Source: a virus
UHGV virus genome: UHGV-0310767
Strand: one strand, 5' to 3'
DNA: 64,000 nucleotides
The translations under genes and the position numbers were made by a program. Below the pieces are notes generated by a model. It saw only the letters and a list, made by a program, of their open reading frames with translations. It was not told the origin of the DNA and did not search any database. Of this stretch, positions 4,571 to 60,992 are shown in pieces; the stretch's first letter is position 1; the number at the start of each line of letters is the position of its first letter.

Positions 4571-4843
4571 ATGACAGGAAATTTTGATATAAATAAAGAA
4601 TTATTGGATGTAATGAGAATTATCGCAAGACAAGAAATAGAAAAATGTAATAGAGATATTACAAAAACTGCTAGAGTAATAGCGGTAAATACTGATAAAA
4701 CAGTTAAAATAGAAATGGATGGAAAACAATATGATAATATTCCTAATTATAATGGGACTACTTTAACAACTAATGATATTGTAAAAGTAACTTATCCTCA
4801 AGGACAGACAAGTAATATGTATATATCTGGGGGGGGCGTTTAA
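4571..4843 (+). CDS. Small tail-module protein (90 aa). Ends in GGGV, encoded by a G8 tract, and is possibly the N-terminal half of a protein fused with the next ORF.
   Basis: Good RBS (aaaggagtgagatatt ATG). ORF ends at the G8 tract 4829-4836. Confidence 0.5.
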   Translation: MTGNFDINKELLDVMRIIARQEIEKCNRDITKTARVIAVNTDKTVKIEMDGKQYDNIPNYNGTTLTTNDIVKVTYPQGQTSNMYISGGGV

Positions 4844-4848
4844 TAATA

Positions 4849-5097
4849 TTGGGTATAACTGATTATGGAATTTTGCAATTAAAATCAGAAAATTCAAATC
4901 CTAGTAGTCCAGAAGGTTCGCAAATTTCATTTCATGGAATGGGTGGAGATACAGGAAAAGGTCAAGATTATTTGTGTTTAGATGCTAATAATGGAGATAT
5001 AAGAATATTTGGTAATTTTGGAGGGGGAGATATTGTAAAAGTGTATGCTTTTACAAATGATGGGTTATATTTTGATGGCAAGAAAATAGGGCCTTAA
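4849..5097 (+). CDS. Small tail-module protein (82 aa) with no RBS of its own. Probably the continuation of 4571..4843 after a +1/-2 slip in the G8 tract.
   Basis: TTG start without an RBS. In frame with the upstream ORF if the G tract is 9 (or 6) long. Confidence 0.4.
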   Translation: MGITDYGILQLKSENSNPSSPEGSQISFHGMGGDTGKGQDYLCLDANNGDIRIFGNFGGGDIVKVYAFTNDGLYFDGKKIGP

Positions 5098-9815: not shown

Positions 9816-10562
9816 ATGAGTGTATTATATCCATCACTTTCTAATACAACGTTTCCAAATACTATTCAAAGTTTTGTAACTTTCTTGAATATTACTCCTA
9901 CTGATGCTTCACTGATTCAAAAATATCAGCTTGCGGTACAGTCAGGAAATATGGAAGAAGCAGAAAATATATTTGGACAAATACAGAATGGTAATCAGAA
10001 AATTATTGATGCTACTAAATTAAATACTTTGGTAGACACTACAGTTGCATTGGAAAACTTTTTTAAAACAGATGTATTTCCTTACATTGATGTTAAGCAG
10101 AATGAATGGCAGAATATTATCAATCTGTTTAATTATAAAGGAGTTTACAGCCCTGTTACTACCTATGTTAAAAATAATTTTGTAACTTTTACTTATAATG
10201 GTGTAGAATATGTATATATTGCTACTGCAAATCCACCTGTAGGAGCAGACCCTACTAATGCCGCTTATTGGAGAAATCTTTCTATTCGTGGTGAAAAGGG
10301 AGACCCAGGAGTAGGAATGTCATTCCTTTATGCATGGGATTCTACGGTTCATTATTCTGTACAAAATGTAGTAACTTATGGTAACTATGTATGGGGTGCG
10401 ACCAAAGAGAATCAGAATCAGGCCCCTTTTGAGGATTCAGAGTATTGGTCTAACATAGGTACGATTAGACCCCGTGTAATCCCTATTACGAGTTCTTACC
10501 CGGCTTTACAGGAGACAGGAGACTTATGGTTCCGCATTTTGACTGATGGGGGGGGTATATAA
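9816..10562 (+). CDS. Tail structural protein (248 aa). The C-terminal GGG is encoded by an in-frame G8 tract.
   Basis: RBS aaggaggtaagaa ATG. G8 at 10548-10555, just before the stop. Confidence 0.45.
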   Translation: MSVLYPSLSNTTFPNTIQSFVTFLNITPTDASLIQKYQLAVQSGNMEEAENIFGQIQNGNQKIIDATKLNTLVDTTVALENFFKTDVFPYIDVKQNEWQNIINLFNYKGVYSPVTTYVKNNFVTFTYNGVEYVYIATANPPVGADPTNAAYWRNLSIRGEKGDPGVGMSFLYAWDSTVHYSVQNVVTYGNYVWGATKENQNQAPFEDSEYWSNIGTIRPRVIPITSSYPALQETGDLWFRILTDGGGI

Positions 10563-14264: not shown

Positions 14265-15133
14265 ATGAGTGTGTTAAACAGATTCCCAACTGGGGGGGCA
14301 GTAATGATGGTTTGACAGCCACCCCAGGAGAAGTTTTAAGTGGTTACAAATTCGTAGGGGCCAGTACAGACGATGTTCAAGTGGGTACTTTACAACTTAC
14401 TGGTAATGCCGCAACGAACCATGTACTTAGTGGTACTACGTTTTATACAAACAACCCCAAGAATAAGCTTACTGGTTATATGGCAATCAATAACATCAGA
14501 GGATTTTCTGTAAGTCTTATAAGTGGCAGAAATGTAACGGTTCAATGGACTAATCCTGTACAAACTGCTGGATATCCTTACAGTGGGGTATATGTAAAAT
14601 ACCAAACAGGTTCCTATCCCACTCCTTCCACTGGTACACAGGCGTACAAGGGAGTAGGAAGCAGTGGGGCAAGTGGGGCCGCTTCTACTGTTTTCAGAAA
14701 TGGTGTAGTTTTATGTAGTGCAGATGGTGGTAAATCCAATACCAGTAAAACTTATGATGGTGGCTCTGGCGGCTCTGGTGGCGGCGGTGGTGGTCAGAGA
14801 GATGGTAATATTCCTGGACAATGGGGTGGTTCTAATGGTGCTGGTGGAGGTAGTGTAGCGGCTAGTGGTAGTGGCGGTAGAGGTCAAGGATTTACTACTA
14901 CTGCTTTTAGAGAAAACTGGGGAACTGTTTACTCAGGTGGTGGCGGCGGTGCTGGTGCTAATACTGGCTCTGGTGGCGGTGGAAACGCTGGCGGTGGAGG
15001 TGGTGGAGGCGCTTATGGTGGTGGCGGCTGGGGTTCAGCTAATACAGGTGGTGGGGGAGGTGGTCAATACTGGCCCAACGGAACCAACGGTGGAAATGGA
15101 GGTTCTGGTGTAATATTGATAAGAATAAAATAA
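14265..15133 (+). CDS. Glycine-rich tail-fibre paralog 1. The conserved N-terminus MSVLNRFPTGG is followed by a G7 tract (14292-14298) that puts the body (tracked as ORF 14312..15133) out of frame; G8 would restore it.
   Basis: ATG at 14265 with RBS aaaggaaaatagtttt. The N-terminal peptide matches the paralogs at 17631 and 48467. The body is homologous to 15174, 17631 and 47324 and ends in the family C-terminus GSGVILIRIK. Confidence 0.65.
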
Positions 15134-15173: not shown

Positions 15174-16526
15174 ATGGCTATAATGAATAACTTTGCTTCT
15201 GGTGGTGCGCCTACAGATGAATTGACGGCAACCCCGGCAGAAGTAATGAAAGGTTATAAATTTCTAGGTGCTGGTTCTGATGAAGAACAAACTGGTACAT
15301 TGGAATTAACTGGAAATGCGGCTGTTAATCATGTTTTACAAGGTGAAACATTTTATAATACAAATCCTAAGAACAAACTTACAGGTACTATGACTGTAAA
15401 TAGTATATTTTCTTTTAAGGCGCAAGTAGTCAGTGGGCGGCAGATTTTGTTTACATGGCAAAATCCGACTACTGCGACAGGAAAGCCGTTCAGCGGAGTA
15501 TGTATAAATTATTCTACTTCTGGATATCCTGGTACGGGAGGTACACGATTATATACAGGAGTAGGAAGCAATAGTGCTTCTGGTGGTACATCTCAAGCTT
15601 ATTTAAATTTACCTAATCTTAATACAGCTTATTATTTTAGTTGTTATTCTTTTGTGAATATTAATAATAATGCAGATAATAAGTATGGTACAGTATTCAA
15701 TGCTAGTGCAACTACAGGAAGAAACATAAGTTTAACTTTTACTCAAAGTCAAGACTATACAATTCCAGGAGGATTTACATTGTTAGATGTATTCCTTGTA
15801 GGAGGTGGAAATAGTGGTATAAGAGGTAACGGAAGAGCTAATAATTGGAAATATGCAGGAGATGGAGGTGGCGGTGGTTATACCAAAACGCAAAGAAATA
15901 TTGGTATAGCTGGCGGTCAAGTTTTAAGATTTAATGTAGGTGGTGGTGGTGGATTTGTTGCAGGTTTAGCATACAATCAATCTGGACAAAGAACTTTTAA
16001 TGTAGGAGGGGTTTCAAGTGTAGTAAGAAGTGGAAGTGTTTTAGCTACTGTTAATGGAGGAAATGATTTTAATGGTGGCTCTGGTGGCGGCGCATATGGT
16101 GAACAAGTATATTTTGGAGAGAATGATTTTAAACACTATGTAGGAAATGGAGGTTCTAATGGTGGAAATGGTGGTTCTACTTTAATAAATAGAAATGGAA
16201 CTACAAGACCAGGAGGTGCAGGACAGAGATTTAGTACAAGAGCCTGGGATGGAACAGGTGCACAATACTCTGCTGGTGGCGGTGGTGGTGCACAACCAGG
16301 AGCAAGATTAGCTGGTTCTGGCGGCTCTGGTGGTAGCCCAGGTGGAGGTAAAGGTGGTAATGCTTGGGCTGGTGGAACAAATGGAGAAAATGGACAAAAC
16401 GGTTCTGCAAATACTGGCTCTGGCGGCGGTGGTGGCGGCGGTTGTGCCTATTATCAAGGTCGTTCTGGTGGTAGTGGTGGAGGCGGTGCTGGTGGTTCTG
16501 GTATCATTTTAGCCATTCTTCATTAA
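15174..16526 (+). CDS. Glycine-rich tail-fibre paralog 2. Intact, with no homopolymer at the N-terminus (MAIMNNFASGGAP).
   Basis: 450 aa. Conserved N-terminal domain (LTATPxEVxxGYKFxG ... TGNAxxNHV ... NPK ... SGR ... PYSGV). Long Gly-rich C-terminal part ending in GSGIILAILH. Confidence 0.7.
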   Translation: MAIMNNFASGGAPTDELTATPAEVMKGYKFLGAGSDEEQTGTLELTGNAAVNHVLQGETFYNTNPKNKLTGTMTVNSIFSFKAQVVSGRQILFTWQNPTTATGKPFSGVCINYSTSGYPGTGGTRLYTGVGSNSASGGTSQAYLNLPNLNTAYYFSCYSFVNINNNADNKYGTVFNASATTGRNISLTFTQSQDYTIPGGFTLLDVFLVGGGNSGIRGNGRANNWKYAGDGGGGGYTKTQRNIGIAGGQVLRFNVGGGGGFVAGLAYNQSGQRTFNVGGVSSVVRSGSVLATVNGGNDFNGGSGGGAYGEQVYFGENDFKHYVGNGGSNGGNGGSTLINRNGTTRPGGAGQRFSTRAWDGTGAQYSAGGGGGAQPGARLAGSGGSGGSPGGGKGGNAWAGGTNGENGQNGSANTGSGGGGGGGCAYYQGRSGGSGGGGAGGSGIILAILH

Positions 16527-16564
16527 TTTTAAAAATAAATTTTAAGAATGAAAGGAAAAGAAAA

Positions 16565-17284
16565 ATGATTGTACATCAGGTTTATGCGTATATTTGGAAT
16601 GAAACTGTACAGAATGTTGTAGTATGTGATAATTACCAGTTAGCGAATGATATCGCCAAAGGTTGTTATGGTAATGATGCTTTTGCTGTAGATTGCTTAC
16701 AATATCCTTGTCAAATTGGAGATAAATATGTAGATGGGAGATTCTATAGAGTTCCAGACGCTACTGAAAATGGAGTGTTGATAGCAAAACCTATGGATAC
16801 TACACCTGTTGATGTTAGTAAATTAGTGGAAATTGAATATGTTTCAACACAGGAACAGGAAGTTGCTACTTTAAAAGCACAGAATGCTATATTAGCTACT
16901 GCTACTTCGTTTATGATTAACACCTTTACAGATGAACAAGCTATTATGGTAGCTGACCTTTATCCTTTATGGTCTGGTGAAAGTGTAAAATATGAAGTTG
17001 GAGAAAGAATAAAGGATGAAAATTATATCCTTTATAAAGTAATTACTGCTCATACGTCACAGCCAGATTGGAAACCTTCTGTATCTCCTTCATTATTTGC
17101 AAAAGTATTAGTGGAAAATCCTAATGAAGTTACTGAGTGGAAACAGCCTGATAGCACTAATGGTTATGATAAAGACATAGTAGTACTTCATAATGGAAAG
17201 GAGTGGAAGTCCCTTGTAAACGGTAATATATGGGAACCAGGAGTTGTAGGAACAGAAACTTTATGGGAAGAAGTAATAAAATAG
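16565..17284 (+). CDS. Hypothetical protein within the tail-fibre cluster (239 aa). Possibly a fibre assembly or accessory protein.
   Basis: RBS gaaaggaaaagaaaa ATG. Located between fibre paralogs 2 and 3. Confidence 0.4.
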   Translation: MIVHQVYAYIWNETVQNVVVCDNYQLANDIAKGCYGNDAFAVDCLQYPCQIGDKYVDGRFYRVPDATENGVLIAKPMDTTPVDVSKLVEIEYVSTQEQEVATLKAQNAILATATSFMINTFTDEQAIMVADLYPLWSGESVKYEVGERIKDENYILYKVITAHTSQPDWKPSVSPSLFAKVLVENPNEVTEWKQPDSTNGYDKDIVVLHNGKEWKSLVNGNIWEPGVVGTETLWEEVIK

Positions 17285-17389
17285 ACATTAAACTACAAAT
17301 TCTACAAAGTAAATGTATATTATACCCTAAAAAGGGTATAATATAAATGTAACCATAAAAAATGATTTCAAGAAAGAGAGGAATTTATA

Positions 17390-17553
17390 ATGGCAGTTTT
17401 AAAAGGTCACAGTGACAAGAGGACACCGGAACAGAGACATGATGATGCAATTAATATGCGTGAGGATGTAAAGCCCACTGCTCTTAACACAGAAAAGAAT
17501 TACGTGACTACTGGCCCAGGTACAGGCAAGGAAGATGAACGTAACGATTGATA
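17390..17553 (+). CDS. Small hypothetical protein (54 aa). Not in the ORF track.
   Basis: ATG preceded by agagaggaatttataATG. Followed by a hairpin terminator at 17561-17590. Confidence 0.3.
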
Positions 17554-17630
17554 ATTGAAAAAGGGAAGGGTAAAACCTTCCCTTTTTACATATTTTTTAA
17601 TATGAATAAAAGGAAAAGAGGGAAATAAAA

Positions 17631-18866
17631 ATGAGTATATTAAACCACTTCCCTACTGGGGGGGGCATAAGTGATACACTAACGGCTACGCCAGAGGATG
17701 TAATGAAAGGGTTTAAATTTGTAGGTTTGCTTCAAGATGATGTGGAAATTGGCACTTTAGAACTTACAGGAAACGCTTTAATTAATCACGTTACAAAAGA
17801 CAAGACATTTTATACTACTAATCCCAAACAAATAATGACAGGAATTATGGAAGTTAATAATGCTAGTAATCTTGTGCTAAGTTTGGCTAGTGGACGTAAC
17901 GTAATAATAAAATGGACTAATCCCAAAGTGACTACAGGCAGACCTTATAGTGGCGTTTATGTTCGTTATCAGACAGGAAGTTATCCAACGCCAACTACAG
18001 GTACACAAGGGTACAAAGGGGTAGGGAGTACTTCTTCGGCTGGTAGCGTATCTCAGGTCACTTTGGCTTTACCTAACCTTAATACCACTTATTACTTCAT
18101 TGTTTACTCTTATTGCACTACCAGTAATGGAGAATTAATTGGCTCTCAATTAAAAGGTACTATAAAAACAGGAAATACTCAAACAATTACCATAAAAAGT
18201 AATCAAAATTACACTGTGCCAGCAGGATATAAAACAGCAGACATATTTTGTGTTGGTGGTGGTGGAGGTAATTATTCCAGTTCTAAATATTATAGTGGAG
18301 GTGGTGCTGGGGGAGGATATACTAAAACTGTTAGCAATATAGGCATTTCTTCTGGTCAAGTACTAAGTTGTACAATAGGAGGAAGTGGTGGGGCAACTTC
18401 GGTTTCTCGTAGTGGAACAGTACTTTGTATTGCTAATGGAGGGAAACAAAGTTCTGCTGGTACTGCTAGTGTAGGTGGTTCTGGTGGTGGCGGTTATACA
18501 GATAATTCAAGATACAATGGAGGAAATGGTGGTAGTAATGGAGGTGGTGGTTCAAGTTCTGGTGCTGGTGCTGGTGCTTTAGGACAGGGAACAACCACAA
18601 GAGCATTTGGTGAAAGTTCTGGTGCTTTATACTCAGGAGGGGGTGGCGGCGGTGCCTACTACTCTAGTTCATCTTCTGGTGGTGCAGGAGGTGCAGGAGG
18701 CGGTGGTGCTGGTGGAAGAAGAAGTAGCCGTCCAGGACAAAATGGGGCCGCTAACACAGGTGGGGGTGCAGGAGGTGGATTTCAAAGTAATACTTCTAAT
18801 CCTTCTGAAAATCCTGATAACAGTAGCCAAGGAGGAAGCGGTATTATTTTAATTAGATTAAAGTAA
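17631..18866 (+). CDS. Glycine-rich tail-fibre paralog 3. In frame, with a G8 tract (17658-17665) encoding the conserved FPTGGG.
   Basis: 411 aa. N-terminus MSILNHFPTGGGISDTLTATPEDVMKGFKF. Ends in GSGIILIRLK. Closest to the minus-strand copy at 47324..48467. Confidence 0.7.
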   Translation: MSILNHFPTGGGISDTLTATPEDVMKGFKFVGLLQDDVEIGTLELTGNALINHVTKDKTFYTTNPKQIMTGIMEVNNASNLVLSLASGRNVIIKWTNPKVTTGRPYSGVYVRYQTGSYPTPTTGTQGYKGVGSTSSAGSVSQVTLALPNLNTTYYFIVYSYCTTSNGELIGSQLKGTIKTGNTQTITIKSNQNYTVPAGYKTADIFCVGGGGGNYSSSKYYSGGGAGGGYTKTVSNIGISSGQVLSCTIGGSGGATSVSRSGTVLCIANGGKQSSAGTASVGGSGGGGYTDNSRYNGGNGGSNGGGGSSSGAGAGALGQGTTTRAFGESSGALYSGGGGGGAYYSSSSSGGAGGAGGGGAGGRRSSRPGQNGAANTGGGAGGGFQSNTSNPSENPDNSSQGGSGIILIRLK

Positions 18867-18905
18867 CAAATAGTGTAAAAAATAAATGAAAGAAAGGGAA
18901 TAATT

Positions 18906-19763
18906 ATGGCAATACTTAATCGTTTTCCTACTGGGGGGAGGCTTATCTTCTGAGGTCACAGCAACTAACAATCAGCTTTTAACAGGGTATACAGCTATAA
19001 CGGCTAACTCTGATGATGAACCAATTGAAGGAACTATGCCTAATTGTGGTACACAGAATTATAGTTTACCTATAAATGGAAGTTATACTATCCCAGAAGG
19101 TTATCATTCTGGCGAAGGTAAGGTAACTCAATCTGTTACTACTATGAAGAGTTCTAATATAACACCTAATACATCTGTAGTAACAATTCCCACCAATCAG
19201 AAATATATTGATGGGAATTTTACTATTCCTGCATTTGCTTTACCATCTGCTTCTATTTTGAAAAAAAAGGAGCAACATATACTTTATATGGAAAAAAGGT
19301 TACAGGAGAATTTGAGGGCTTCGTTCCTAGTGTTACAGATTTATATTACAAAGGAAATAATATAGCTAATTTCAGTTTTAAGGTGGCATATGGATATTCT
19401 GTACTAGGCTCTGTTAAATTTGAAACTGCTCAAATGATAACTACATCAGATAGAAATGGAACTGCTGGCCCTTTATGTAGTGGAAGAAGTTATAATTTAA
19501 CTCCTTATAATTCAATTAATATTGAAGTAAATCCTCCAACTCCATCTATTTCTTTATCTACAGTTTATAGGGGTGTAGTATTTCATTATGGGAGTGATTT
19601 AAATACAAGAGATGCATTTATAAATTCAACAAAACCATCAACTTATGTATTTAGTTTTGATATATCAGGAATAAATGCAACTAAATGGTTTGCGTTTATG
19701 TTTTTTTATAAAGAAAATACTAGTGCCTATAAAGGAATTATAAATCGTATTTGGTTCAGTTAA
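18906..19763 (+). CDS. Tail-fibre-like protein 4. It has the same FPTGG N-terminal leader and a different, non-Gly-rich body. It is currently broken into three ORFs by a G6 tract (18933-18938) and an A8 tract (19261-19268).
   Basis: ATG 18906 with RBS gaaagggaataatt. The frame reconnects to ORF 19036..19365 with G5 or G8. ORF 19036..19365 reconnects to 19383..19763 with A9, giving a plausible continuous sequence ...ILKKKGATYTLYGKKVTGEFEGF... Confidence 0.5.
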
Positions 19764-19781
19764 AAAGAAAGGAAGATTATT

Positions 19782-20702
19782 ATGGCAGATTTAAAAACAG
19801 CAAAAGGACTGGTGGAATTTGCACAGTCTAAAATTGGTACTCATTATGCATATGGGGCAAAGGGAGAGATACTTACTAAAACAAAAATATACTCCTGGGC
19901 CAGAATGTATCCAAACATTTATACCCAAGCATATATTAATCAGCTTTTGAAATGGGTTGGTGAATATGCAGTTGATTGTTCTGGACTTATTTCATGGTAT
20001 ACTGGTGTCATTCGTGGTTCCAGTAATTTTGAACAGACTGGTACAAACAAGATACAGCCTTCAAAACTTGATGATGGTAAGTTTGGTTGGGCGGTATGGA
20101 AAAACGGTCATATCGGCATTGTAGAGAGTTCTACCAAGGTCATAGAGGCCAAGGGCATTAACTACGGCACCATCAGAAGCAATCGAACAGCTACCCCCTG
20201 GGTAAATGCTTTTCAGATAAAGGATATTAATTATCAGGCAGAGGAAGGTTTACAGGGGTGGAAAAAAGTTAAAGTTGGTTATGTATATTTTCAGAATGGA
20301 GTTATGCTGAAAAATGCATGGGTAAGAGATAAAGATAGATGGTATATCTTATCTGGAAACGGCCTTATGATTCATGATGAATGGTTTTATGAAAATGGCA
20401 GATGGTATTATCTTGCTGGGGATGGAGGTATGATTTCTAACCAGTGGCTTCTATACAAAGATAATTGGTATTATTTTGATGGAGCCGGTGTTTGTTTAAC
20501 AGACACATGGTATAAATACAATGGAGATTGGTATTATTTAGATGATACAGGAGCTATGCATAAAGGAATGCTTTATGATAGTGGCGAATGGTATTATCTG
20601 AATAACGAAGGTAAATTAGTTACAAATAAAAGTATTGTATTTGACGCTAAAGACGATGGAGCATTAAAATTTGCTGGACTTGTAAATAAATTTGATGAGT
20701 AA
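19782..20702 (+). CDS. Endolysin: N-terminal NlpC/P60 cysteine peptidase domain plus C-terminal choline-binding-type cell-wall-binding repeats.
   Basis: Catalytic Cys in the VDCSGLISWY context and His in NGHIGIV. Six or more tandem WYY/WYYL ~20-aa repeats (GxWYYLxxxGxMxxxW) at the C-terminus. RBS aaaggaagattatt ATG. Confidence 0.8.
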   Translation: MADLKTAKGLVEFAQSKIGTHYAYGAKGEILTKTKIYSWARMYPNIYTQAYINQLLKWVGEYAVDCSGLISWYTGVIRGSSNFEQTGTNKIQPSKLDDGKFGWAVWKNGHIGIVESSTKVIEAKGINYGTIRSNRTATPWVNAFQIKDINYQAEEGLQGWKKVKVGYVYFQNGVMLKNAWVRDKDRWYILSGNGLMIHDEWFYENGRWYYLAGDGGMISNQWLLYKDNWYYFDGAGVCLTDTWYKYNGDWYYLDDTGAMHKGMLYDSGEWYYLNNEGKLVTNKSIVFDAKDDGALKFAGLVNKFDE

Positions 20703-20716
20703 TGGAGGTAAAAAAT

Positions 20717-20903
20717 ATGGTAACTATGAATAAGTGGGGGGGCAAATGGTACTGCCGAAGCAGAATTTTGCGGTTTAAGTACTGACAATAAACCCGTAGA
20801 CGAAGGAATTCCTAATGGTTCATCATTTTTTGAGATGGATACATTTAAGGTATATTTCTTTAATAAAATGACAAAAACATGGATAACTGAGGGAGGTGTT
20901 TAA
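20717..20903 (+). CDS. Small protein downstream of the lysin. A G7 tract at 20736-20742 gives a 22-aa truncation; G6 (or G9) would give a 62-aa protein (..ANGTAEAEFCGLSTDNKPVDEGIPNGSSFFEMDTFKVYFFNKMTKTWITEGGV).
   Basis: Strong RBS ggaggtaaaaaat ATG. The alternative frame is open to 20903 and abuts the next gene. Confidence 0.35.
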
Positions 20904-21488
20904 ATGTCTCCTATGCAAGTTTTAGCTATTTGTTTGAATAAAATTGCAAAGATAAATAGTGAAATAGAATCTATTCCTGCCGCATTAGTTTTTAAAGCTT
21001 CAATAGATAATGTGGATTTACTTCCTACCAATCCAAAAGTAGGAGATATGTATAATATAACAGTTAAATCTATTTATGGCGAACCAGGAATGAATGTAGC
21101 CTGGAATGGAACAGAATGGGATGCGTTGGGAAGCACCATAGATTTAAGTCAGTATTATACTAAAACAGAAACAGATAATAAATTTTCTTATAAAAGTACT
21201 TCTGAAACAGTTGCAGGAACAGCAATATCTCAAAATTTAACTTCTAATGTTTTGTATATATTTTCAGATGAATTAACATCTTTAAATATTACAGGATTAG
21301 ATGGTGGAAATGAGCCTTATAATGTTATAAGAGAATGGATGTTTCAGTTTACTTCTGGGGCAACACCCACAGTTTTAACACTTCCTACAGGGGTACAATC
21401 TGAATTGGTTGTATCCCCTAATACCATATATCAGTGTAGCATAGTTAATAATTTGCTTACATTTCAAGGATGGAAGGTGAGTAGCTAA
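20904..21488 (+). CDS. Hypothetical structural protein (194 aa)
   Basis: RBS gagggaggtgtttaa ATG. Start/stop overlap with the next gene (ATGA). Confidence 0.4.
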   Translation: MSPMQVLAICLNKIAKINSEIESIPAALVFKASIDNVDLLPTNPKVGDMYNITVKSIYGEPGMNVAWNGTEWDALGSTIDLSQYYTKTETDNKFSYKSTSETVAGTAISQNLTSNVLYIFSDELTSLNITGLDGGNEPYNVIREWMFQFTSGATPTVLTLPTGVQSELVVSPNTIYQCSIVNNLLTFQGWKVSS

Positions 21489-23038
21489 TGAGTTTTTTAC
21501 GTAGAGAACAAATGGATTGTTGTAACTATGTGGAAGCTATGGGAAGTAAAATTTTAGTAAATTCTAAAAGTAACTGGATGCATTTAGAGAGTTTAGAAGG
21601 TAATACTACTCAAGTTCAAACTACTGGTGCGCAGTTATTTGATATAAAAAATATCGTATCTCCGCAAACTGTAAATGGAATTACTTTAACAACAGATTTA
21701 ACTAATGGAACTATAACAGTAAATGGAACGGCTACTGCTGTAACTATATTTACTATTCCTTTAACCAATATTATACCTACAGGTAAGATAATATATATGG
21801 GAGCAAATAATCCTATTGCTGGAAATAGTGAATTACAATTGAGATTAATGACAGAAGATGAAAGTGTAATTGTTGTAGGTTTACAATTATTAACTATTGA
21901 TACTAGTATTGTTACTACTTTAACTAATGATGTTTCTAAAATAGGTTTTAGAATAGGGGCTAATCAAACTGTTAATAATTTTGTTATAAAAATTATGTTA
22001 GCTTATGATTCAGCTAAACCTTGGGAACCATATACAGGTGAGAAGCCCAGTCCATCAGTGGAATATCCTCAAGATTTTGTAGGGGCTGATATCAAATATA
22101 TTGAAGTACAAGGTGCGCAGTTATTTGATATAAGTAATCCTTATTCGTCAATTAATCAATGGGTTATTACGAATGATACCATTTCTATAACTAATCCTAC
22201 AGGTAGTTATTTAACTGTAATTTATAAAATAGATTGTAAGCCAAATACAACTTATACTATTTATAGCATTATAGTTAATGATGTTCCAGATGCTAATAGT
22301 ATGCATATTGCTATTAGTTTATTAAAAAAAGATGGGACAACTCAAGATAATATAGTTGTTTTAAATAATACTTCATCTGCCACTTTTATTACTACATCAG
22401 ATACACAATCTATTTATATTTATTTTAGAAATAGAACTATTGGTAATGGAGGGTATTTTAAAGATATTATAGTTAATGAAGGAAAAACTGCTTTACCATG
22501 GCAACCTTATTACTCTCCACAAAATATTTCTATTACTTTAACAAAGCCTTTATATGGTATTGATAATTATAATGACGAAATTGCTGTGACTAAACGTATT
22601 GATAAATGTATAGAATTTACTTTTAATGGAAGTGAAAATTGGGCAGTAATTTCAACATATGAAGGATTCTATTATGCGGGCATATTACCATTTACTGCTA
22701 TGAGAAGAGCTGGTTTTTGTAATCAATTTCCTGTAGATACAAAAGGTGAAGCAATTGAATCTATTAGGATTGGTAATGGTAATTCTGTATTGTTCTGCGT
22801 ATATAGCCGTTTCTATGATGATACTGCCGCAGATAAGGGACTTGCCGCCTGGAAAGCCCATCTTTCTACCAATCCTTTAAAAATAGTTACTTATACAAAT
22901 CCAGAAGGTTATGTAGAAACTCCTTTGGAACAAAGCAATATTGATGCTATAAAAAGTCTTTATGCTTATAATGGATATACTATCGTAAACAATAATGAAA
23001 ATACCAACATGAAGATTATGTATAAAACTAAAAGTTAA
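21488..23038 (+). CDS. Modular fibre / receptor-binding-like protein (516 aa). Shares the 'TTGAQxxDI' and 'AKPWEPYTGEKPSPS(V/N)EYPQD' modules with the 10566..13829 protein.
   Basis: Duplicated GAQLFDI(K/S)N segments. KPWEPYTG linker. Last gene before the convergent terminator at 23051-23090. Confidence 0.45.
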   Translation: MSFLRREQMDCCNYVEAMGSKILVNSKSNWMHLESLEGNTTQVQTTGAQLFDIKNIVSPQTVNGITLTTDLTNGTITVNGTATAVTIFTIPLTNIIPTGKIIYMGANNPIAGNSELQLRLMTEDESVIVVGLQLLTIDTSIVTTLTNDVSKIGFRIGANQTVNNFVIKIMLAYDSAKPWEPYTGEKPSPSVEYPQDFVGADIKYIEVQGAQLFDISNPYSSINQWVITNDTISITNPTGSYLTVIYKIDCKPNTTYTIYSIIVNDVPDANSMHIAISLLKKDGTTQDNIVVLNNTSSATFITTSDTQSIYIYFRNRTIGNGGYFKDIIVNEGKTALPWQPYYSPQNISITLTKPLYGIDNYNDEIAVTKRIDKCIEFTFNGSENWAVISTYEGFYYAGILPFTAMRRAGFCNQFPVDTKGEAIESIRIGNGNSVLFCVYSRFYDDTAADKGLAAWKAHLSTNPLKIVTYTNPEGYVETPLEQSNIDAIKSLYAYNGYTIVNNNENTNMKIMYKTKS

Positions 23039-33303: not shown

Positions 33304-34797
33304 TTATTCTTCCTCTCTATCTGCCCTTTCAAATTGTAATGATAAACTTAAATCAGGATTTACATTACGAATTTTTATTACACTATGCGTAAAGACAGAA
33401 TTTTTATATTTCTTTGCTATAAATTCTTCTTCATCATCTTCACTTTTACGATATCCTGATATCATAAGTAGTGTACCTTTTTTAAACCAATTAGTATCTT
33501 CGTCAAATTCTTCTGTTTCACTAATACTTTTTTTATAGTAAGCATACTGTCCTTCATTAAATTTAACCATAACTACATCATTATCTGGTGTAAGAAGATT
33601 AATAAAATGTTTACTGTCGTTACGACTTAATACCACACCACATATTCTTGAAAGGTCGTATTGTCTCCATTTTCTTTTCCCATTCTTACTACTTTTTTCT
33701 ACAAAAATAGGAGATGTGGGTAAATCTTGATAATGACTAATATTATATTCTTCAAAATCAATACCTGTAAGTTCGTGCTTATCTGGATAAAAAGAAATGG
33801 TTTCCATACTCCATTTAGGAATATTTTCATACTTTACCAGATTCATATATTCTTGTTGCCAATATTTCTTATTGTATTCTTCTACTAAAGATGGATTATT
33901 AATATAGCTTATTAATTCATCTAATTCTGGTTTTAGAACTTTATCCAAAGATTTATCAATAACAATAAGCATATCATTCTCGTAATAAAAATCTTTTCCT
34001 TCTGTAAGGTCATTAATATAATGTTCCTCAAAGAATGGTCTAGCAAATTTATCCTCAAGTATATAATCTTTTTTAGTCTTAAATTTCTCATTCTTACGAT
34101 AAAAGAAATTAGGACTTTCTACATATTTTCTAAAGTTATATACTTTAACAAGGTGTTTAGGAAGCGTACAACCCAATTCTAAGCATTTAGAAAGATTAGC
34201 CATAGTAAGAGTTGTCTTAGCTGGATTCTCCCAGCATATAAGCCATTTAAGCATTAATATCTTATCATCACATAATGAATCGAAACAACCAGCTTTAATT
34301 AAAGTGGCAAATATACTTTTTGTAACTAAACTTTTTCTATAAATCATATTTCCTTTTTCGTCCAATTCTCCCGTGGGAACTAATAAATTCTTCTGATAAT
34401 CATAAAATTCTTTGAACGAATTATAAGGTCTGCCGCTCATAATATCTTTGGCAACATCCCTATTCATTTTAGTAATTCCACCTAATCCAAAAAGAATTAA
34501 ACTTTCGTCTACTAAAGGAGTAAAGGATAAGTCTGATTTATTTATATCTGGCGGCAATGTATTTATACGATAATCTTTCATACGATAAATAGCTTTTGCC
34601 ATTTTTTCATAATTAGTTCCAGTATTCTTTTTCTTTCTTTCTAAATCTTCATATTCATCTTCATTTTCTTCTGTTGATGAAGATTCTACAGTTAAACAGG
34701 CACAAGCCCAAAATACAGGAGGAAAGAAGTAATTTACATTGAGTTCTTGTAAACCAATTACTGAGTAAGCGTACGAATGTAATTGGGAAAAGGAATT
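33304..34797 (-). CDS. dnaE: DNA polymerase III alpha subunit (DnaE-type) exon 3 (C-terminal part: HhH and OB region). The 5' boundary is approximate.
   Basis: The frame is open from 34797. Encodes ...HSYAYSVIGLQ...FWACACLTVESSS...TLPPDINKSDLSFTPLVDESLILFGLGGI, matching the DnaE FNKSHSAAYALVSYQ ... ILPPDIN ... FGLGAIKGVG region. Confidence 0.7.
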   Translation of the reverse strand, partial: NSFSQLHSYAYSVIGLQELNVNYFFPPVFWACACLTVESSSTEENEDEYEDLERKKKNTGTNYEKMAKAIYRMKDYRINTLPPDINKSDLSFTPLVDESLILFGLGGITKMNRDVAKDIMSGRPYNSFKEFYDYQKNLLVPTGELDEKGNMIYRKSLVTKSIFATLIKAGCFDSLCDDKILMLKWLICWENPAKTTLTMANLSKCLELGCTLPKHLVKVYNFRKYVESPNFFYRKNEKFKTKKDYILEDKFARPFFEEHYINDLTEGKDFYYENDMLIVIDKSLDKVLKPELDELISYINNPSLVEEYNKKYWQQEYMNLVKYENIPKWSMETISFYPDKHELTGIDFEEYNISHYQDLPTSPIFVEKSSKNGKRKWRQYDLSRICGVVLSRNDSKHFINLLTPDNDVVMVKFNEGQYAYYKKSISETEEFDEDTNWFKKGTLLMISGYRKSEDDEEEFIAKKYKNSVFTHSVIKIRNVNPDLSLSLQFERADREEE

Positions 34798-36188
34798 TCA
34801 ATAGTTTTAATTGCATTTCTACAACATATGTATTCCATAAACATATGAAATCATATGAACTATTGAGGACTATATCTTTGTAAAAATTAAAAAATGAATG
34901 AATGATATTATAAAAAATAACAAAGACGACAATTTTTTTAGTTTCTATTTAATTTCCTTTTATTAGGATTATTCCTAACTAATGTAGATTTAGTAATCCC
35001 CGTCATTTCAGCCACTTCATCATAGGTATGAGTTTTTAATAATTCTAATGCTTTACTCATATCTTCTTCTGAATAAGCTTTATAACTTTTACCTCTTTCG
35101 ATATTCCACATTCTACCTTCATTATCAGGAACTTCATTATTAAAACAAAACCATAATTGTTCCCTAGTTATAGGTAATGTAGCAATAGAAGTATAAGTGT
35201 TTACTTCATTATTCTTAATAGAAGTATATTTTTTAGGCTTATTATCATTGACAGCTTTTATTCTTTCTACATCTATTTGACTAGGAATTTTTGCATATCT
35301 CTCAATTAAAATATTATAATCTCTATAATAATGATTTTTATAAGATAAACGATACATTCTCATAGTATCTTTATTTTCATCATTATAAGAATTATAAACT
35401 TTAATCAACTCTCCATTTTCGTCATATTCTACACATTTTCTACTATTAGATTCTGTAGCTTTAAGTTGATTAATTCTACAAGATTCTTTACGTTTTTCAC
35501 TATCTTTGTTAATCAAACCAGTAGCAGAAGCATGAATCATATTAAGTTTTCTGTCTACCCATTCTAAATTAGTAGCTTTATTATTAGTTTTATCTCCATC
35601 AATATGATTTACTTCTTTATATTGTTCTGGTTTAGGATTTTCACAAAAAGCAAATGCTACTAATCTATGAACCATATAGTTATGTCCTTTTAAATTAATT
35701 CCCATATATCCAGTATTATTATTTTTGCAAGATTTTATATTCTTTTTGTTATGTTTTATATTGCCTAAATTACTTATATAATAATCTTTACTTCCCTCAA
35801 TCTCTTTCCAAATTTCCATTCTTTCTGAATTTTTCATATTTTCCTCCTTTCTTCATTATTTTTTAAAACAATCATTCATTCATCATCATTCATTTTTTAA
35901 TATTACAGATTTGCACTTCCATTAACGTATCAATAGTTAATGTACTTCCTGTCGGAATAGTCTCTACATCTTCTTTAATATTACTATTAAAGCTTGACAC
36001 GGTATTATCAGCTATCTATATATCTTAATATAGACCTTAGAATTTCTTAGTCAGCGGCTTCGTCCTTTTTATTATGCTGTAATCTAGTTGTAACTCTTGT
36101 ACAGCGGTCTTATTCAACTGATACCGTTAGCATTGCACTTCTATGCAACACACCCCTGATAGGGTTCACAAATCATGACCATTATTAC
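34798..36188 (-). mobile_element. Group-I-intron-like intervening sequence 2 in dnaE, carrying an HNH endonuclease ORF. Boundaries are approximate.
   Basis: About 1.39 kb between the dnaE coding segments. The homologous DnaE sequence stops at ...FGY and resumes at ...SQLHSYAYS. Contains ORF 34938..35837 plus about 350 nt of non-coding structured sequence. Confidence 0.6.
34938..35837 (-). CDS. Intron-encoded HNH homing endonuclease (NUMOD4/HNH_3-like; 299 aa).
   Basis: N-terminus WKEI...YYISNLGNI (NUMOD4-like) then HRLVAFAF...VNHIDGDKTNNKATNLEWV (HNH_3). Confidence 0.7.
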   Translation of the reverse strand: MKNSERMEIWKEIEGSKDYYISNLGNIKHNKKNIKSCKNNNTGYMGINLKGHNYMVHRLVAFAFCENPKPEQYKEVNHIDGDKTNNKATNLEWVDRKLNMIHASATGLINKDSEKRKESCRINQLKATESNSRKCVEYDENGELIKVYNSYNDENKDTMRMYRLSYKNHYYRDYNILIERYAKIPSQIDVERIKAVNDNKPKKYTSIKNNEVNTYTSIATLPITREQLWFCFNNEVPDNEGRMWNIERGKSYKAYSEEDMSKALELLKTHTYDEVAEMTGITKSTLVRNNPNKRKLNRN

Positions 36189-37313
36189 ATAGCCAAAACT
36201 CATACCAAATAATTCATACCATATATAATTGGCAAATAATTCTCTACACCCTTGTTTAATACAATGCTCAAAGAACATGATTCTTGTGGCTTCTAACACT
36301 TCATCGTCTTTTTTTGCTATAGCTTTTCTTAATTTATTGGCCTGTTTAAGACTAAATCCTGCAACTCTTTTATCCATGGAAATAAGCATAACTTTTTCCT
36401 GGGATTCTGGAAGCATACGAGAATCAGAACAATATTGTCTTATAACGTCCATTTCATCTTCTGTTAATCCATATTCATGACAATCTTTTTCCCATTCTTT
36501 TACATCGGCATATCTAGCATATCTCTGTAATGGAGTCTCAGTAGTTTCACCACTACCCATCAATCGTAATATGGAATTAGTTGCAGATAACTCCATTAAA
36601 TTTTTGGGCTGTACTACATTAATAGCATTTACTGACACAGGAGTATCGAACTGAAATAAAGAATAAATATCTTTAATGATTCCCCACATAGAAGGATTGT
36701 CATAATTTATAACATCTGGATGTAAGTACTTATCATATGTTGCTTTTAAATTACCTTGCCATTCTAAATATTTATGCTCAACCAATAAATCCATAGTAGT
36801 TCTTAATTTATCGCTGGCTTTTACTGTAAGCATATCTACTTTAACAATACCGCAATCTTCACAATCCTGCAAATCATAACAAGTACATAAATCTCCATTA
36901 GGGGCTTTCATACAAGAAATATAGTTAGTATAAGGCTCATTTGAGATAATTAATCCTGCGGCATGAAGTCCTCTACCAACGACAATTCCTTCTAAAGCTA
37001 ATGCACACTCTTTAAGATTAGGATACTTGTTAATTTCCTTTATAAATTCTTTTGCTGGTTTTCTATTTTTTTTAGTATTTCCTTCTAAACAATCCTTAAG
37101 ACTCCAAATCATTCCTCTTTCTACTGGAATTAAAGATTTAAGATATCCTGCGGCATCATCAGAAATTCCTAAACCTTTACAGGATTTTTCTATAGCTGTT
37201 TTGGAAGTCATTTCAGAAAATGTAGCCACTTTTAAAACCTTATCAAATCCCCAGAATTTTGCAATGTTGTGTGCAATAATTTGCTTTTTTGTATTCTGTG
37301 AATCTAAATCAAT
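36189..37313 (-). CDS. dnaE: DNA polymerase III alpha exon 2 (polymerase core middle part). Boundaries are approximate.
   Basis: Begins IDLDSQNTKKQIIAHNIAKFWGFDKVLKVATF (DnaE PD|IDIDF...VAQIATFG) and contains GRGLHAAGLIIS (DnaE GRHAAGVVI). Confidence 0.7.
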
Positions 37314-38163
37314 CCTTTATACCCCTGGTTTCCCAGTACTTTAACACATTTTATTTCAAATGTGGGAGTAGACTATATCTTCATCTTGTTTTATCAACAA
37401 GAGGATGGCACAGGATAAAAGGAATTTCACCTTTTACCACTTAGTCGTTTGAGTTTCAGCGCAATGTAATAAGTTTGAAATTTCTACTATAACCCCTTCT
37501 CATTAACATAGAATGTGAAACATCTAAATTATGAGAATCAATATATTTCTTTACCTCAGTGTTACCTTTTAATTTTGGACTTTTGTTACCATTAGGATAA
37601 ACTATTATATAATATAAATAATTTCTTACTGCATTTATTCCTGATGTTTCATAACTTTTATTTATATTTTCTTTTTGAGTTACCCATTCTAAATTGGTGT
37701 AATGATTATTAAGTGTATTTGCATCTTTGTGATTTACTACAGCACCTTCAAACCATCCAGGAACAAATGCCATAGCTACCAATTGATGAACCCCTTTTCT
37801 ATACACTTTATTATCCTTACTTAAGTCCACATATTTGTAACCGCCTTTATTAACAAATCCATTTAATATTTTGGGATTTTTATATTTATGGCTAATTACT
37901 TTTCCATCTTCTGTAACACTGTATTTTTCAAACTTATCAATTATTTTTTCTATTCTTTTTTTAATTTCCTTTCTACATATTCTTATTACTTGCGCCGCTT
38001 ACCACAGGATTACCATGCTTTTTTTAAAGTTTAGGCTTCCCCTGTTAGCACAATTCCTAATCATCATTTCCTATGATTCCTAAACGTGAATTGTACACCC
38101 TAGATTTCTAGGTTCACCATCTTATTTTCTATATGTCACCATATAGCCAGACTATTGAAGTTA
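37314..38163 (-). mobile_element. Group-I-intron-like intervening sequence 1 in dnaE, carrying an HNH endonuclease ORF. Boundaries are approximate.
   Basis: Exon 1 ends ...GIEIPD (last nt U) followed immediately by a stop. Exon 2 resumes IDLD after ...taaag|g. Contains ORF 37456..37830. Confidence 0.6.
37456..37830 (-). CDS. Intron-encoded HNH homing endonuclease (HNH_3; 124 aa).
   Basis: HQLVAMAF...VNHKDANTLNNHYTNLEWVTQKEN. Confidence 0.7.
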   Translation of the reverse strand: MDLSKDNKVYRKGVHQLVAMAFVPGWFEGAVVNHKDANTLNNHYTNLEWVTQKENINKSYETSGINAVRNYLYYIIVYPNGNKSPKLKGNTEVKKYIDSHNLDVSHSMLMRRGYSRNFKLITLR

Positions 38164-39585
38164 ATCTGGAATCTCAATACCTCTTTCTGTACTTAAATGT
38201 CTCCAATATGGAGCATAGTCACCCAAAGGTACAGGGTCAATTTGTGTAATTTCTAATAAATAACATGTTAAATATCCAAAAGCTGAACCTCTGGACGGCA
38301 TACAAAAACTATTTGATTCCCAAATTATTTCTACAATTCTACTTACACTAGTATAATAAGCCGCCATATGAGATTTGAATATTTCACTTAATCCTTTTAA
38401 TTCTTTAGCTTCTTTATTGATTCTATCAATATATGTTTCTAAATTCTTTTGTGGCTTACTTTCAATAAGTTTTTCTAACCCTTTTTCTACACGATAGAAA
38501 AAATACTGGTCTTGAATATTATCAGAATAAGCATAATATTTAAAATACTCATATTTATTATAATATTTTTTATATCTATGAGTAATTTTAAATTCTGGTA
38601 TTTTGTCCAATGGAATCTCTGGTATCATAGGCATATGTTTTAAATCATATGTTCTTACTCTATCTGCAATTTCATTACTATTTTTAAATATTGTATCTAT
38701 TTCTTCATCTGTAAATGTAATTCTTAAATGTTCCCTTAATTCCTGGGGAGACATAAGATAAGTAGTTGCATAGAAAGAATCTACTTCTCTGTCTCCATCT
38801 TTAGAATTAAGTAAAGTTTTATGATATAATGCTGATTCTTTGTTAAGATAATGAGTATCAGTTGTGGCTATAATTTTAAAACCATATTGTACTGAAAGTT
38901 CTTTCATGGCTTCATTCACTATAAGCTGGTCAACATTATCCTCTTTACACGGCTGAATCTCCAAGTAAAAATTGTTAGAGCCGAAAACTTTATTACACCA
39001 GGATAAAAAATCGCTTATGCGTTTTAAAACGCCTATACTCTTTTGTACCTCTTTATAACCCGGTTCTGGTTTCTTCCACTGCAAGATAAGTTTGTCAAGA
39101 TAGGAACCAAGACATGCAGAAGATGCAATTAAATGTCCTTTATTATTTCCGATAATTTCTTCTATATCAGAATAATAAGTTGGTCTACGCATAAGTCTAC
39201 GGGATGTATAAGCACGTTGCCATGCTTTACTACTTATTTCTCTTAATTGCTTATGACCTTCTGTATCTAAAGCAGTTAAAATAAAATGGTAATAGGGAGT
39301 ATAATCGGTTCCTTCTCTATTACTCATATCTTCTGCTTCACTCATAAGATATATTTCATTTCCTAATGCTAATTTAAAAGGTCTATCTTTCTCCATCTTT
39401 TCATAATATTTCAATGCTTGCATATGAGAAGATATACCTTCATGTTCTGTAATAGCTATTCCAGATAGCCCCAAATCATAAGCATACTGAATTAACTCAT
39501 TAACTCTAGTAATAGCATCAGGAAAACCTAATAACGCACTACTATAACATGAATGATTATGATTATCAAAATAAATATCTGTCAT
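38164..39585 (-). CDS. dnaE: DNA polymerase III alpha exon 1 (PHP domain plus the start of the polymerase core).
   Basis: N-terminus IYFDNHNHSCYSSALLGFPD (PHP HxH). Ends ...RHLSTERGIEIPD. Confidence 0.75.
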
Positions 39586-44246: not shown

Positions 44247-44699
44247 TTATAAAGTCTTATTAATTCTTTTGTGTCTTTTACCAATTCTTCTTTTTCCTTT
44301 TTTTTCTGTTAATTCTCTTTGTTTTTTTCTTTTATTTTCATAGTAAGATTTTATTTTTGAATTATAATTAGAAATAGCTAATTTCATTGCATTTTCAGAA
44401 ACTTTATCTTCTATAAAAAATCTATCTTTAGGATAATAATTAGCTATACAGTTATTAACTTCAAAATCATAAAGAGAATTTAAAGTATAATATATTCCAT
44501 ATTTTTCTCTAATACATAATTGTTCTTTTGTTAATTCTGAATCCCCATTTCTTTTATAATAAATATAATGAGAATTGATATAAACAATAGGAAATTTTTC
44601 TAATGCAAAATATATACAATCTCCATGTTTATTAAGTGTTAATTTATAAATGCGTTTAAATTTACTTAAATCTTTTCTATTGGGTACAAATACTGCCAT
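44247..44699 (-). CDS. Hypothetical protein, paralog A1 (150 aa; MAVFVPNRKDLSKFKRIYKLTL...).
   Basis: Clear paralog of 46830..47312, sharing N-terminal MAVF(V/I)P..K....SKFK.IY.LTLEK....F.LEKFPI.Y.NS..IY.K.NG and a basic Lys-rich C-terminus. Confidence 0.5.
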   Translation of the reverse strand: MAVFVPNRKDLSKFKRIYKLTLNKHGDCIYFALEKFPIVYINSHYIYYKRNGDSELTKEQLCIREKYGIYYTLNSLYDFEVNNCIANYYPKDRFFIEDKVSENAMKLAISNYNSKIKSYYENKRKKQRELTEKKGKRRIGKRHKRINKTL

Positions 44700-47323: not shown

Positions 47324-48467
47324 TTATTTTAATCTTATTAAAACAACACCTGAACCTCCTGTAGAAATATATCCTTGATAATTTCCACCAGCACCACCGC
47401 CCGTATTAGTTCCTCCGTTACCAGCTTGCCAACTGCCATTAGAACCTCCACCGCCGCCCCCGGCACCGCCGCCACCAGGGCTTCCTCCACTTCTTCCAAA
47501 ACCACCACCACCACCACCGCCTGAATATATAGTTCCATTAGATTCCCCAAACGCTCTTGTAGTAGAACCTTGACCTAGGCCACCACCACCAGAACCACCT
47601 TGTCTACCTGCTGAATTAAATCTAGGGTTTCCATCTCCACCATTAGCACTACATAATGTACTACTTCCTTTTTTTACAGTGGTAGTTCCTCCTTTATTAC
47701 CTCCATATCCACCTCCACCAATAGTTATAGATAACACATCTTTTTCAGCTACAGTTATATTATTAACAGTTTTGGTATATCCTGCACCGCCACCACCATT
47801 AGCATAATAACTAGAATCCCCATATTCACTACCACCACCTCCGCCAACACAGAAAACATCTATTTTAGAATATCCTGCTGGAATTGTGTAATTAGAAGTT
47901 GCTTTGATAGTAATTATCTGAGAACTACCTGTATTTACTGTAGCTTTTAATTGTGTTCCTAAGATTTCCCCATTGGATGTTACACAATAAGAGTAAACAA
48001 TGAAGTAATACATAGTATCAAGAGAAGGAAGGGATAAAGCTGTTGTAGATATCCCTCCACTCTCTTGTGATGTTCCTACTCCCTTGTACCCTTCTATACC
48101 TGTATCTGGTGTAGGATAGGAACCTGTTTGATATCGGATATATACTCCACTATAAGGTCTACCTAGTTCTTCAATAGGATTAGTCCATTGGACTGTAATA
48201 TTTCTACCACTAGAAACAGACAAAATTAAATTGCTTACATTTCCTGGCTCTAGGGTGCCTGTTAGTGAATTTTTGGGGTCTACAGTGTAAAACGTAGTAC
48301 CTTTGGTTACATGGTTTTTTACAGCATCACCTGTCAACTGTAAGGAACCAGTCTCTACATCGTCTGTACTGGCCCCTACGAATTTGTAACCATCCATAAC
48401 AACGGATGAATCGGCTGTCAAGCTATCAGGTATGCCCCCCAGTTGGGAAGCGGTTTAGTATTGGCAT
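47324..48467 (-). CDS. Glycine-rich tail-fibre paralog 5 on the minus strand inside the replication module. Its N-terminus MPILNRFPTGG is followed by a G6 tract (+ strand C6 at 48435-48440) that places the body (ORF 47324..48421) out of frame; G8 would restore it.
   Basis: ATG at 48467 with RBS (aaaggagattaag ATG). About 70-75% nucleotide similarity to 17631..18866, including the identical 26-mer tattacttcattgtttactcttattg. Ends in GSGVVLIRLK. Confidence 0.6.
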
Positions 48468-60614: not shown

Positions 60615-60676
60615 TTAAAACCGATTTAGATTTTATATATCTAAAAACCAATTTAAATTTTCTGATATCTTATATA

Positions 60677-60960: not shown

Positions 60961-60992
60961 AAATTTTCCTTTCTTTATTCTTTATTTACTTT

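Follow-up and report, generated by a model that had tools for sequence, protein, structure and literature searches.

The virus genome UHGV-0310767 was analysed over a stretch of 64,000 nucleotides, given as one strand and hereafter called the window. Between positions 18906 and 19763 on the plus strand lies a fibre-like gene, gene 4, that is read as three separate open reading frames (ORFs). A first-pass annotation had described it as one gene split by a G6 and an A8 homopolymer, and both runs and all three ORFs are present. The leader ORF as now read (18906..18953) encodes MAILNRFPTGGRLIF and stops at TGA 18951-18953; its first 11 codons belong to an N-terminal module shared with other genes, and the rest is an out-of-frame read. 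The poly-G tract (18933..18941) has the string GGGGGGAGG, a G6 (18933-18938) followed by AGG. From the tract to the internal ATG, the body-frame codons GGLSSEVTATNNQLLTGYTAITANSDDEPIEGT (18937..19035) offer no access in frame from an ATG, GTG or TTG, and the first start codon from which the body frame can be reached is ATG 19036. This ATG opens ORF2 (19036..19365, 109 amino acids, aa), which reads as genuine protein through ...PSASILKK and, past the A run, as an out-of-frame tail (KEQHILYMEKRLQ...). The A run itself (19261..19268) is the sole A8 on the plus strand of the window; it is read A_AAA_AAG in the ORF2 frame and appears as a +2 expansion of the in-frame A6 of relatives. The C-terminal part of the gene (GATYTLYGKKVTGEFEGFVPSV...IINRIWFS, 19269..19763) contains ORF3, listed with a GTG start (19383..19763, 126 aa), and forms a predicted beta-sandwich domain.

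Frame arithmetic agrees with the first-pass annotation that the leader can be joined to the frame of the 19036 ORF only by G5 or G8; the 19036 frame is in turn joined to the 19383 frame by A9 or A6. As it stands, the sequence gives just a 15-aa leader peptide.

The region around gene 4 is closely related to known phages of Enterocloster. It is 94% identical to Enterocloster phage PMBT24 (OQ326496.2), a virulent siphovirus of 99,962 bp that was sequenced on a MiSeq instrument, and five further Enterocloster bolteae phages also match it. Window positions 16383-22763 are 100% identical to a 106,362-bp contig (ENA ERZ27304110 k141_83189), whose MEGAHIT-style k141_ name we take to mean a short-read metagenome assembly. 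The interrupted-tract allele turned up only by exact-protein look-up, an exact search of IMG/VR and JGI metagenome contigs giving zero matches. The PMBT24 paper (PMC11035940) nowhere mentions homopolymers or frameshifts.

The three ORFs are pieces of a single gene, as had been proposed, for intact homologues run continuously through both junctions. When one base is taken off the G run and A8 is shortened to A6, the repaired product is identical at 281 of 284 positions, without gaps, to a natural in-frame protein of 284 aa (P0077, beginning MAILNRFPTGGGLSSEVTATNNQ...). Relative to P0077, the window copy has two frame breaks and three amino-acid differences, too few substitutions to gauge relaxed selection. 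A search with the fused product likewise found close homologues that are continuous across the A junction (...PSASILKKGATYTLYGKKVTGEFEG... / ILKKGATYTLYGK). Most of these are annotated from the internal Met (241 aa), as the gene is in public PMBT24 annotations, which indicates that the gene caller was unable to link body to leader. The repair suggested earlier for the second junction, A9, is correct as arithmetic but is not the ancestral form: natural intact alleles have either A6 (TTG AAA AAA GGA) or TTA AAA AAA GGA, likewise in frame, which means that the window has two As too many, not one missing.

Two other ways of reading the three ORFs were tried and rejected. The leader and ORF3 share a frame (+1 then +2), so that the two frameshifts might compensate, but the intervening 330 bases hold stops in that frame (TGA 18951), and no read-through product results. 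ORF2 and ORF3 could also be separate functional proteins; the GTG of ORF3 has no suitably spaced ribosome-binding site, however, and the tail of ORF2 consists of 33 out-of-frame residues.

Structure prediction of the fused product, which the first-pass annotation had named as a check, also points to one protein. AlphaFold gave the fused chain a mean pLDDT of 81.6, with residues 140-285 mostly above 90; these residues form a confident beta-sandwich that starts about 20 residues past the A-run junction and covers the former boundary between ORF2 and ORF3. The nearest solved folds to this C-terminal domain in Foldseek are the carbohydrate-binding modules CBM86, CBM6 and CBM4, at weak scores (E 4e-3 to 3e-2). 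A Pfam search of gene 4 returned zero families, and its PHROG matches (35834 and 13589) are both families of unknown function. The gene lies between the tail-fibre genes and the lysin. We conclude that 18906-19763 is one accessory gene of a PMBT24-like Enterocloster phage with an intact product of 284 aa, in which the shared N-terminal module (about 40 aa) is predicted to be followed by a linker and, at the C-terminus, by a beta-sandwich like carbohydrate-binding modules. Because of this C-terminal fold and the position of the gene, the product is a putative tail-fibre or receptor-binding accessory protein.

The leader of gene 4 is not unique to it. Its pattern, TTYCCNACNGGNGG, occurs four times in the window against an expected zero, heading gene 4 and three Gly-rich PF21722 paralogues (14265, 17631 and, on the minus strand, 48467). 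Likeness between gene 4 and these paralogues is confined to the first 40 residues, which bears out the earlier suggestion that the FPTGG leader and its G tract are a portable N-terminal module (about 40 aa) common to Gly-rich paralogues with otherwise unrelated bodies. In distant phages the same N-terminus (MGKIWMPGGGGGADLDVVTAG...) is encoded in frame by mixed Gly codons and without a long G run. Within the window, GGG makes up just 9% of Gly codons, and GGG-GGG accounts for 3 of 212 Gly-Gly pairs in intact ORFs. The rarity of GGG and the mixed codons of the distant homologues together indicate that the G homopolymer is a derived, non-random trait of the PMBT24-like group.

We compared the tract among relatives of the window. 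Their copies have G runs of about seven or more inside the coding sequence (G7-G10; the window copy is degraded to G6 + AGG), and tract length varies while the body protein stays identical. Among ten samples with one and the same 241-aa body (P0064), the tract is G9 in four, G10 in two and G7 in four; carriers of a second body, P0069, have G10, G9, G9 and GGGGGAGGG (G5AGGG), and those of a third, P0011, have G7 and G9. The gene-4 tract of PMBT24 is G10, and the two-copy genomes L008 and L046 have G9 in both copies. The in-frame alleles L058 (P0077) and L079 (P0088) are G8, and P0077 is near-identical to the body protein of out-of-frame carriers. Tract length thus acts as a toggle on the reading frame: G8 gives products of 284 aa (P0077) and 267 aa (P0088), whereas other lengths stop the leader ORF after 13-30 codons. 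Most alleles are offset by +1; G7, G10 and L047 (a G9 with differing downstream sequence) are offset by +2, and G8 is in frame. Throughout this phage group the G tract is both conserved and hypervariable.

Since contig look-ups were keyed on out-of-frame proteins, tract counts are biased towards the off state, and cluster listings are the fairer guide to allele frequencies. Four of five clusters at 90% identity contain one in-frame member each (P0077, P0088, P0105 and P0111) against many internal-Met members; in the fifth, the longer member, P0093, begins at a GTG within the tract. In these listings in-frame alleles are a small minority. In-frame and out-of-frame alleles therefore coexist in most sub-lineages, and the out-of-frame ones prevail.

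Despite this prevalence, the segment that lies between the tract and the internal Met is under purifying selection. None of its 31 codons can be reached from an ATG, GTG or TTG in their own frame, yet between lineages with an out-of-frame consensus their dN/dS is mostly 0.1-0.3. For L003 against copy B of L008, for example, synonymous changes amount to 17.2 over 24 sites and non-synonymous changes to 13.8 over 69. Unreachable codons under purifying selection must be translated from the leader start codon after a change of frame at the tract. Such a change could occur in a minority of genomes, through DNA slippage, or at the level of RNA or the ribosome, two routes that sequence alone cannot tell apart.

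A leader variant bears on access to the body frame. In L011, L053, L059-L061, L063, L066, L074, L075, L077 and L078, AGT replaces ACT before the tract, creating a GTG at the tract start that lies in the body frame in G6 and G9 carriers. Gene callers start there (MGGLSSEV...), and this GTG could be a leader-independent entry to the body frame.

Against this background, the window copy is distinguished by an interrupted tract. In the alignment its tract region equals the G9 of relatives in length and reads GGGGGGAGG, with an A at the seventh position. A tract as long as G9 places this copy in the common register, one base too long, with an interruption in addition. A similar interruption occurs in L056 (GGGGGAGGG), and CB457P1 has an interrupted tract in another gene (GGGGAGGGG), in frame. 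The interruption would be expected to slow slippage and so freeze the state of the tract.

The A run follows a different pattern. It is an in-frame A6 in PMBT24, L003-L007, L010 and L049, and an in-frame TTA AAA AAA in carriers of P0069; more distant copies of the gene read AAGAAG or AAGAAA at this site, with no homopolymer. A frameshifting A7, together with G6, G7 or G9, is found in at least 12 samples, L011 among them, while A8 occurs only in the window and its matching contig (L052). To judge from these alleles, A8 arose within one lineage by +2 expansion of an in-frame A6 and is no conserved second switch. The two tracts thus differ in kind: the G tract is hypervariable across the group and A8 is confined to one lineage. 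Other lesions of the body are also found. L048 has two nonsense codons, fragments of the L048 type occur on 22-67 contigs, further frameshifts lie in a T7 run (P0065) and an A4 run (P0066), and the gene is absent from the part of CB457P2 that was read. The A run is evidently a mutational hotspot, and A8 one more lesion of a dispensable, often lost gene.

These observations suggest the following reading. The shared module has its Gly-Gly-Gly codons written, in this phage group, as a homopolymeric G run whose length would change by slippage during DNA replication. Slippage would move the body into and out of frame with its sole usable start codon, making the gene a contingency locus. The window copy carries two lesions, a tract in the common one-base-too-long register with a G-to-A interruption, and an in-frame A6 grown to A8 that shifts the frame a second time, so that restoring its protein would take two independent insertions or deletions. 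A8 is best read as mutational decay in a dispensable, mostly silent gene, and the G break as the usual off state of the family, partly frozen in this copy. On balance, the window copy is probably a twice-disabled allele of such a contingency gene, gated by poly-G, and most likely dead or deeply silenced. Of the three options offered by the first-pass annotation, decay to a pseudogene is thus the best fit for this copy and phase variation suits the G tract as a feature of the family, while platform undercalls are unlikely.

Several observations weigh against this reading. The tract-length variation seen here is between samples, not within one phage population. In-frame G8 is strikingly rare compared with G7, G9 and G10, and expression could do without switching at the DNA level. 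The recurrence of A7 in at least 12 samples, alongside G6, G7 and G9, means that the A run may be a recurrent hotspot, not the site of a one-off lesion. An early association of short tracts with broken bodies (three of four broken at G6 or less against none of 11 at G7 or more in the first 15 lineages) was lost on wider sampling and had to be dropped, because the A7 frameshift then appeared with G7 and G9. The paralogue inside the replication module is in an odd location for a virion protein. Finally, the function of the gene-4 product is judged from its position and a weak fold match, with nothing from Pfam and PHROGs of unknown function.

The recurrent length changes of the A run could also mean that it is a working contingency locus in its own right, with expression requiring both it and the G tract to be in register. 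A6, A7 and A8 do occur among near-identical sequences, as does an in-frame A7 form (TTA AAA AAA); the A7 allele is found in the samples counted above, another coding-strand A8 in the window (44298-44305) is likewise frameshifted relative to an A7 in PMBT24, and Gomez, Barrick and Waters (2025, bioRxiv 10.1101/2025.10.21.683753) have proposed that A/T runs of six or more act as contingency loci in phages. However, the site is not homopolymeric in other copies (AAGAAG, AAGAAA), the T7 and A4 frameshifts and nonsense codons elsewhere in the body resemble general decay, and reversion from A7 or A8 to A6 has not been demonstrated; we regard a double switch as unlikely. Recoding would instead draw a low level of full-length protein from the existing sequence, through RNA-polymerase or +1 ribosomal slippage at the G run (GGG_AGG_C) and a -1 shift at the A run. 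In the ORF2 frame, the latter presents A_AAA_AAG (19263-19269), which is the slippery heptamer of dnaX-type -1 frameshifting; a -1 shift here would restore the downstream frame, giving LKKKGATY.... Nearly all natural alleles being out of frame, mostly by +1 (G9), while the pre-Met segment is under purifying selection would fit such a mechanism, as would the rarity of GGG codons. The window contains no phage-encoded tRNA that might decode GGG. At the G run, programmed +1 or transcriptional slippage would go with a uniform offset and no in-frame alleles, but the offset is two bases in G10, G7 and L047, and G8 alleles are in frame. At the A run, neither the -1 site nor the two-frame arrangement is conserved, relatives being single-frame with an in-frame A6, an in-frame TTA-A7 or AAGAAG; no relative has the A8 heptamer, and A7 would need another kind of shift. 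Neither tract is followed by a stable RNA structure (z +0.4 to +0.9 versus shuffles), and no stimulatory structure lies 3' of A8 in particular (minimum free energy -9.3 kcal/mol, z +0.41 versus shuffles). Two inefficient events in series would also yield very little product, and we consider recoding of this copy an improbable source of its protein. Unprogrammed low-level slippage on long G runs is nevertheless possible, and is a point of interest given the rarity of a G8 consensus. In an extension of this idea, PMBT24-like gut phages would have a multi-locus poly-G system of roughly ten tracts per genome in which the one-base-out state is the working state and slippage of RNA polymerase or the ribosome on G9 supplies a small, tuned amount of protein. 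Its sites may include the shared N-terminal module of the paralogues, the protein encoded after the tape measure gene, the small post-lysin gene and a C5 methyltransferase. Such a system would explain why G8 is almost never the consensus despite purifying selection, and we hold it to be possible, if rather doubtful. For proteomics, FPTGGGLSSEVTATNNQLLTGYTAITVNSDDEPIEGTMPNCGTQ is a peptide target for the full-length gene-4 product.

A sequencing or assembly error would leave the real gene intact or singly switched, with G6 and A8 as miscalled homopolymers. Homopolymers are the classic site of miscalls, and A8 is restricted to the window and the contig that is probably its source. Several lines of evidence argue against such an artefact. 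Neither run differs from its counterpart in relatives by an undercall: in the G tract one base is substituted with no change of length, and the A run is longer by two. The identical contig bears a MEGAHIT-style k141_ name. Elsewhere in the window, 33 T7, 9 A7 and about 135 A6 or T6 runs leave ORFs of 1498, 1108 and 1087 aa intact. Over 50.8 kb aligned to PMBT24, homopolymer insertions and deletions are almost all intergenic, the genic ones being only G tracts, this A run and one other A run. Out-of-frame tracts also occur in PMBT24, which was sequenced on MiSeq, among them an identical G6 at the 48435 paralogue. We therefore think an error very improbable, and retain the reading of a doubly disabled contingency gene.

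Poly-G contingency loci are known in bacteria, where they occur in surface-structure genes of Campylobacter, Neisseria and Haemophilus and in phase-variable methyltransferases. The tracts described here share with them a location near the 5' end and on/off control through the reading frame, and one of the genes concerned is a methyltransferase; interrupting substitutions may stabilise a state in both, as proposed above for the phage tract. Unlike those loci, the carrier here is a virulent phage genome that encodes its own Pol III alpha. The nearest parallel among phages is in Campylobacter Fletchervirus, whose receptor-binding-protein genes have hypermutable poly-G tracts (Sorensen et al. 2021, Cell Rep 35:109214). 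Going by summaries of that work, the two cases are alike in that low-GC phages carry G runs of about 7-11 in the coding sequence of host-recognition genes (a role that is putative here), several tracts occur per genome, and length changes shift the frame and turn genes on or off. Fletchervirus populations are described as mixed for the proteins made, and the tract differences seen here are known between samples. The present case differs in its host, a Gram-positive gut relative of Clostridium instead of Campylobacter, in the placement of the tract within Gly codons of a short N-terminal module common to paralogues with unrelated bodies, and in the presence of tracts in a C5 methyltransferase and small ORFs as well. 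T-even and other phages have also been proposed to use homopolymer runs of six or more as contingency loci, with reversible frameshifts by polymerase slippage (Gomez, Barrick and Waters 2025). Reversible frameshifts at runs of six or more, and more than one run in some genes, are common to that survey and our case; the survey covers runs of any base of six or more, which are under-represented in coliphage tail-fibre genes, whereas here the runs are of G, far exceed the expected number and cluster in fibre-like accessory genes.

Our literature search found no report of poly-G switching in phages of Gram-positive gut anaerobes. If this is confirmed, phages of Enterocloster would add an independent second case, in which a conserved N-terminal module is joined through a slippery Gly linker to bodies that can be exchanged. 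One consequence is that gene callers split or truncate these poly-G genes; another is that isolates directed at E. bolteae may be mixtures differing in their sets of accessory proteins. The gene-4 locus of the window itself carries a more modest message, that of a disabled copy. A phage methyltransferase switched by a poly-G run would deserve separate attention.

Gene 4 is one of many tract-bearing genes in the window. There are ten G/C runs of six or more, every one G on the coding strand, and eight runs of seven or more, whereas 200 second-order Markov simulations averaged 0.57 and never exceeded 3. Three of the ten tracts are in frame (246, 10548 and 17658) and seven are out of frame (4829, 14292, 18933, 20736, 48435, 52780 and 60831); several differ in length from those of close relatives. 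Among the Gly-rich paralogues with the same leader, the one at 14265..15133 (plus strand) has G7 at 14292-14298 and is out of frame (G8 would be in frame), its PMBT24 orthologue reading GGTGGTG in frame. The PF21722 paralogue at 17631..18866 (plus strand) has G8 at 17658-17665, in frame, and encodes 411 aa. The third, in the replication module (47324..48467, minus strand), has a coding-strand G6 (48435-48440) and is out of frame; PMBT24 shares this out-of-frame G6, with flanks 100% identical, and CB457P1 has G7. Same-leader Gly-rich paralogues on the other strand, between primase and helicase genes, are found at 47324-48467 (minus strand) in the window and at about 73.7 kb and 78.3 kb in PMBT24. 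Tracts of the PMBT24 record lie at 47928 (G10), 49730 (G7), 73705 (G6) and 78317 (G9).

Tracts outside this paralogue family are found in genes of several kinds. The gene after the tape measure (4571-5097, plus strand) is split at G8 4829-4836, and G9 would give 175 aa. It has an 88-aa N-terminal module ending in GGG and a C-terminal part that varies between phages; in CB457P1 the tract is an in-frame G9 (267 aa), and PMBT24 has no tract (170 aa). A small post-lysin gene (20702-20903, plus strand) is out of frame at G7 20736-20742 and needs G6 or G9 for its 67 aa; in near-identical relatives this tract is G7, G8, G9 or GGGGAGGGG, and it varies no less than the tract of gene 4. On the minus strand, a C5 cytosine DNA methyltransferase (52142-53526), with no counterpart in PMBT24, is split by a coding-strand G7 (52780-52786); with G8 it gives a whole-length match to PF00145 (E 1e-56). 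A small minus-strand ORF at about 60600-60990 is broken at a coding-strand G7 (60831-60837), where PMBT24, with flanks 99.3% identical, has G5 and an intact 93-aa gene, and CB457P1 has no tract. The G8 at 10548-10555 (plus strand) lies two codons upstream of the stop of a tail-fibre gene (PHROG 26419), where a change of length alters the last few residues only; PMBT24 has G8 here, L008 has G9 and CB457P1 has GGGGAGGG.

Two further features of the minus strand differ from PMBT24. The Pol III alpha gene (33304-39585) is broken into three pieces by two insertions (about 34792-36188 and 37305-38164) that PMBT24 lacks; each contains an HNH endonuclease ORF, and no Rfam intron family scored above threshold there. 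The ORF at 44247-44699 carries the coding-strand A8 mentioned above (44298-44305) and has a 150-aa product with an altered tail, compared with 178 aa from A7 in PMBT24; one A fewer restores the PMBT24 C-terminus.

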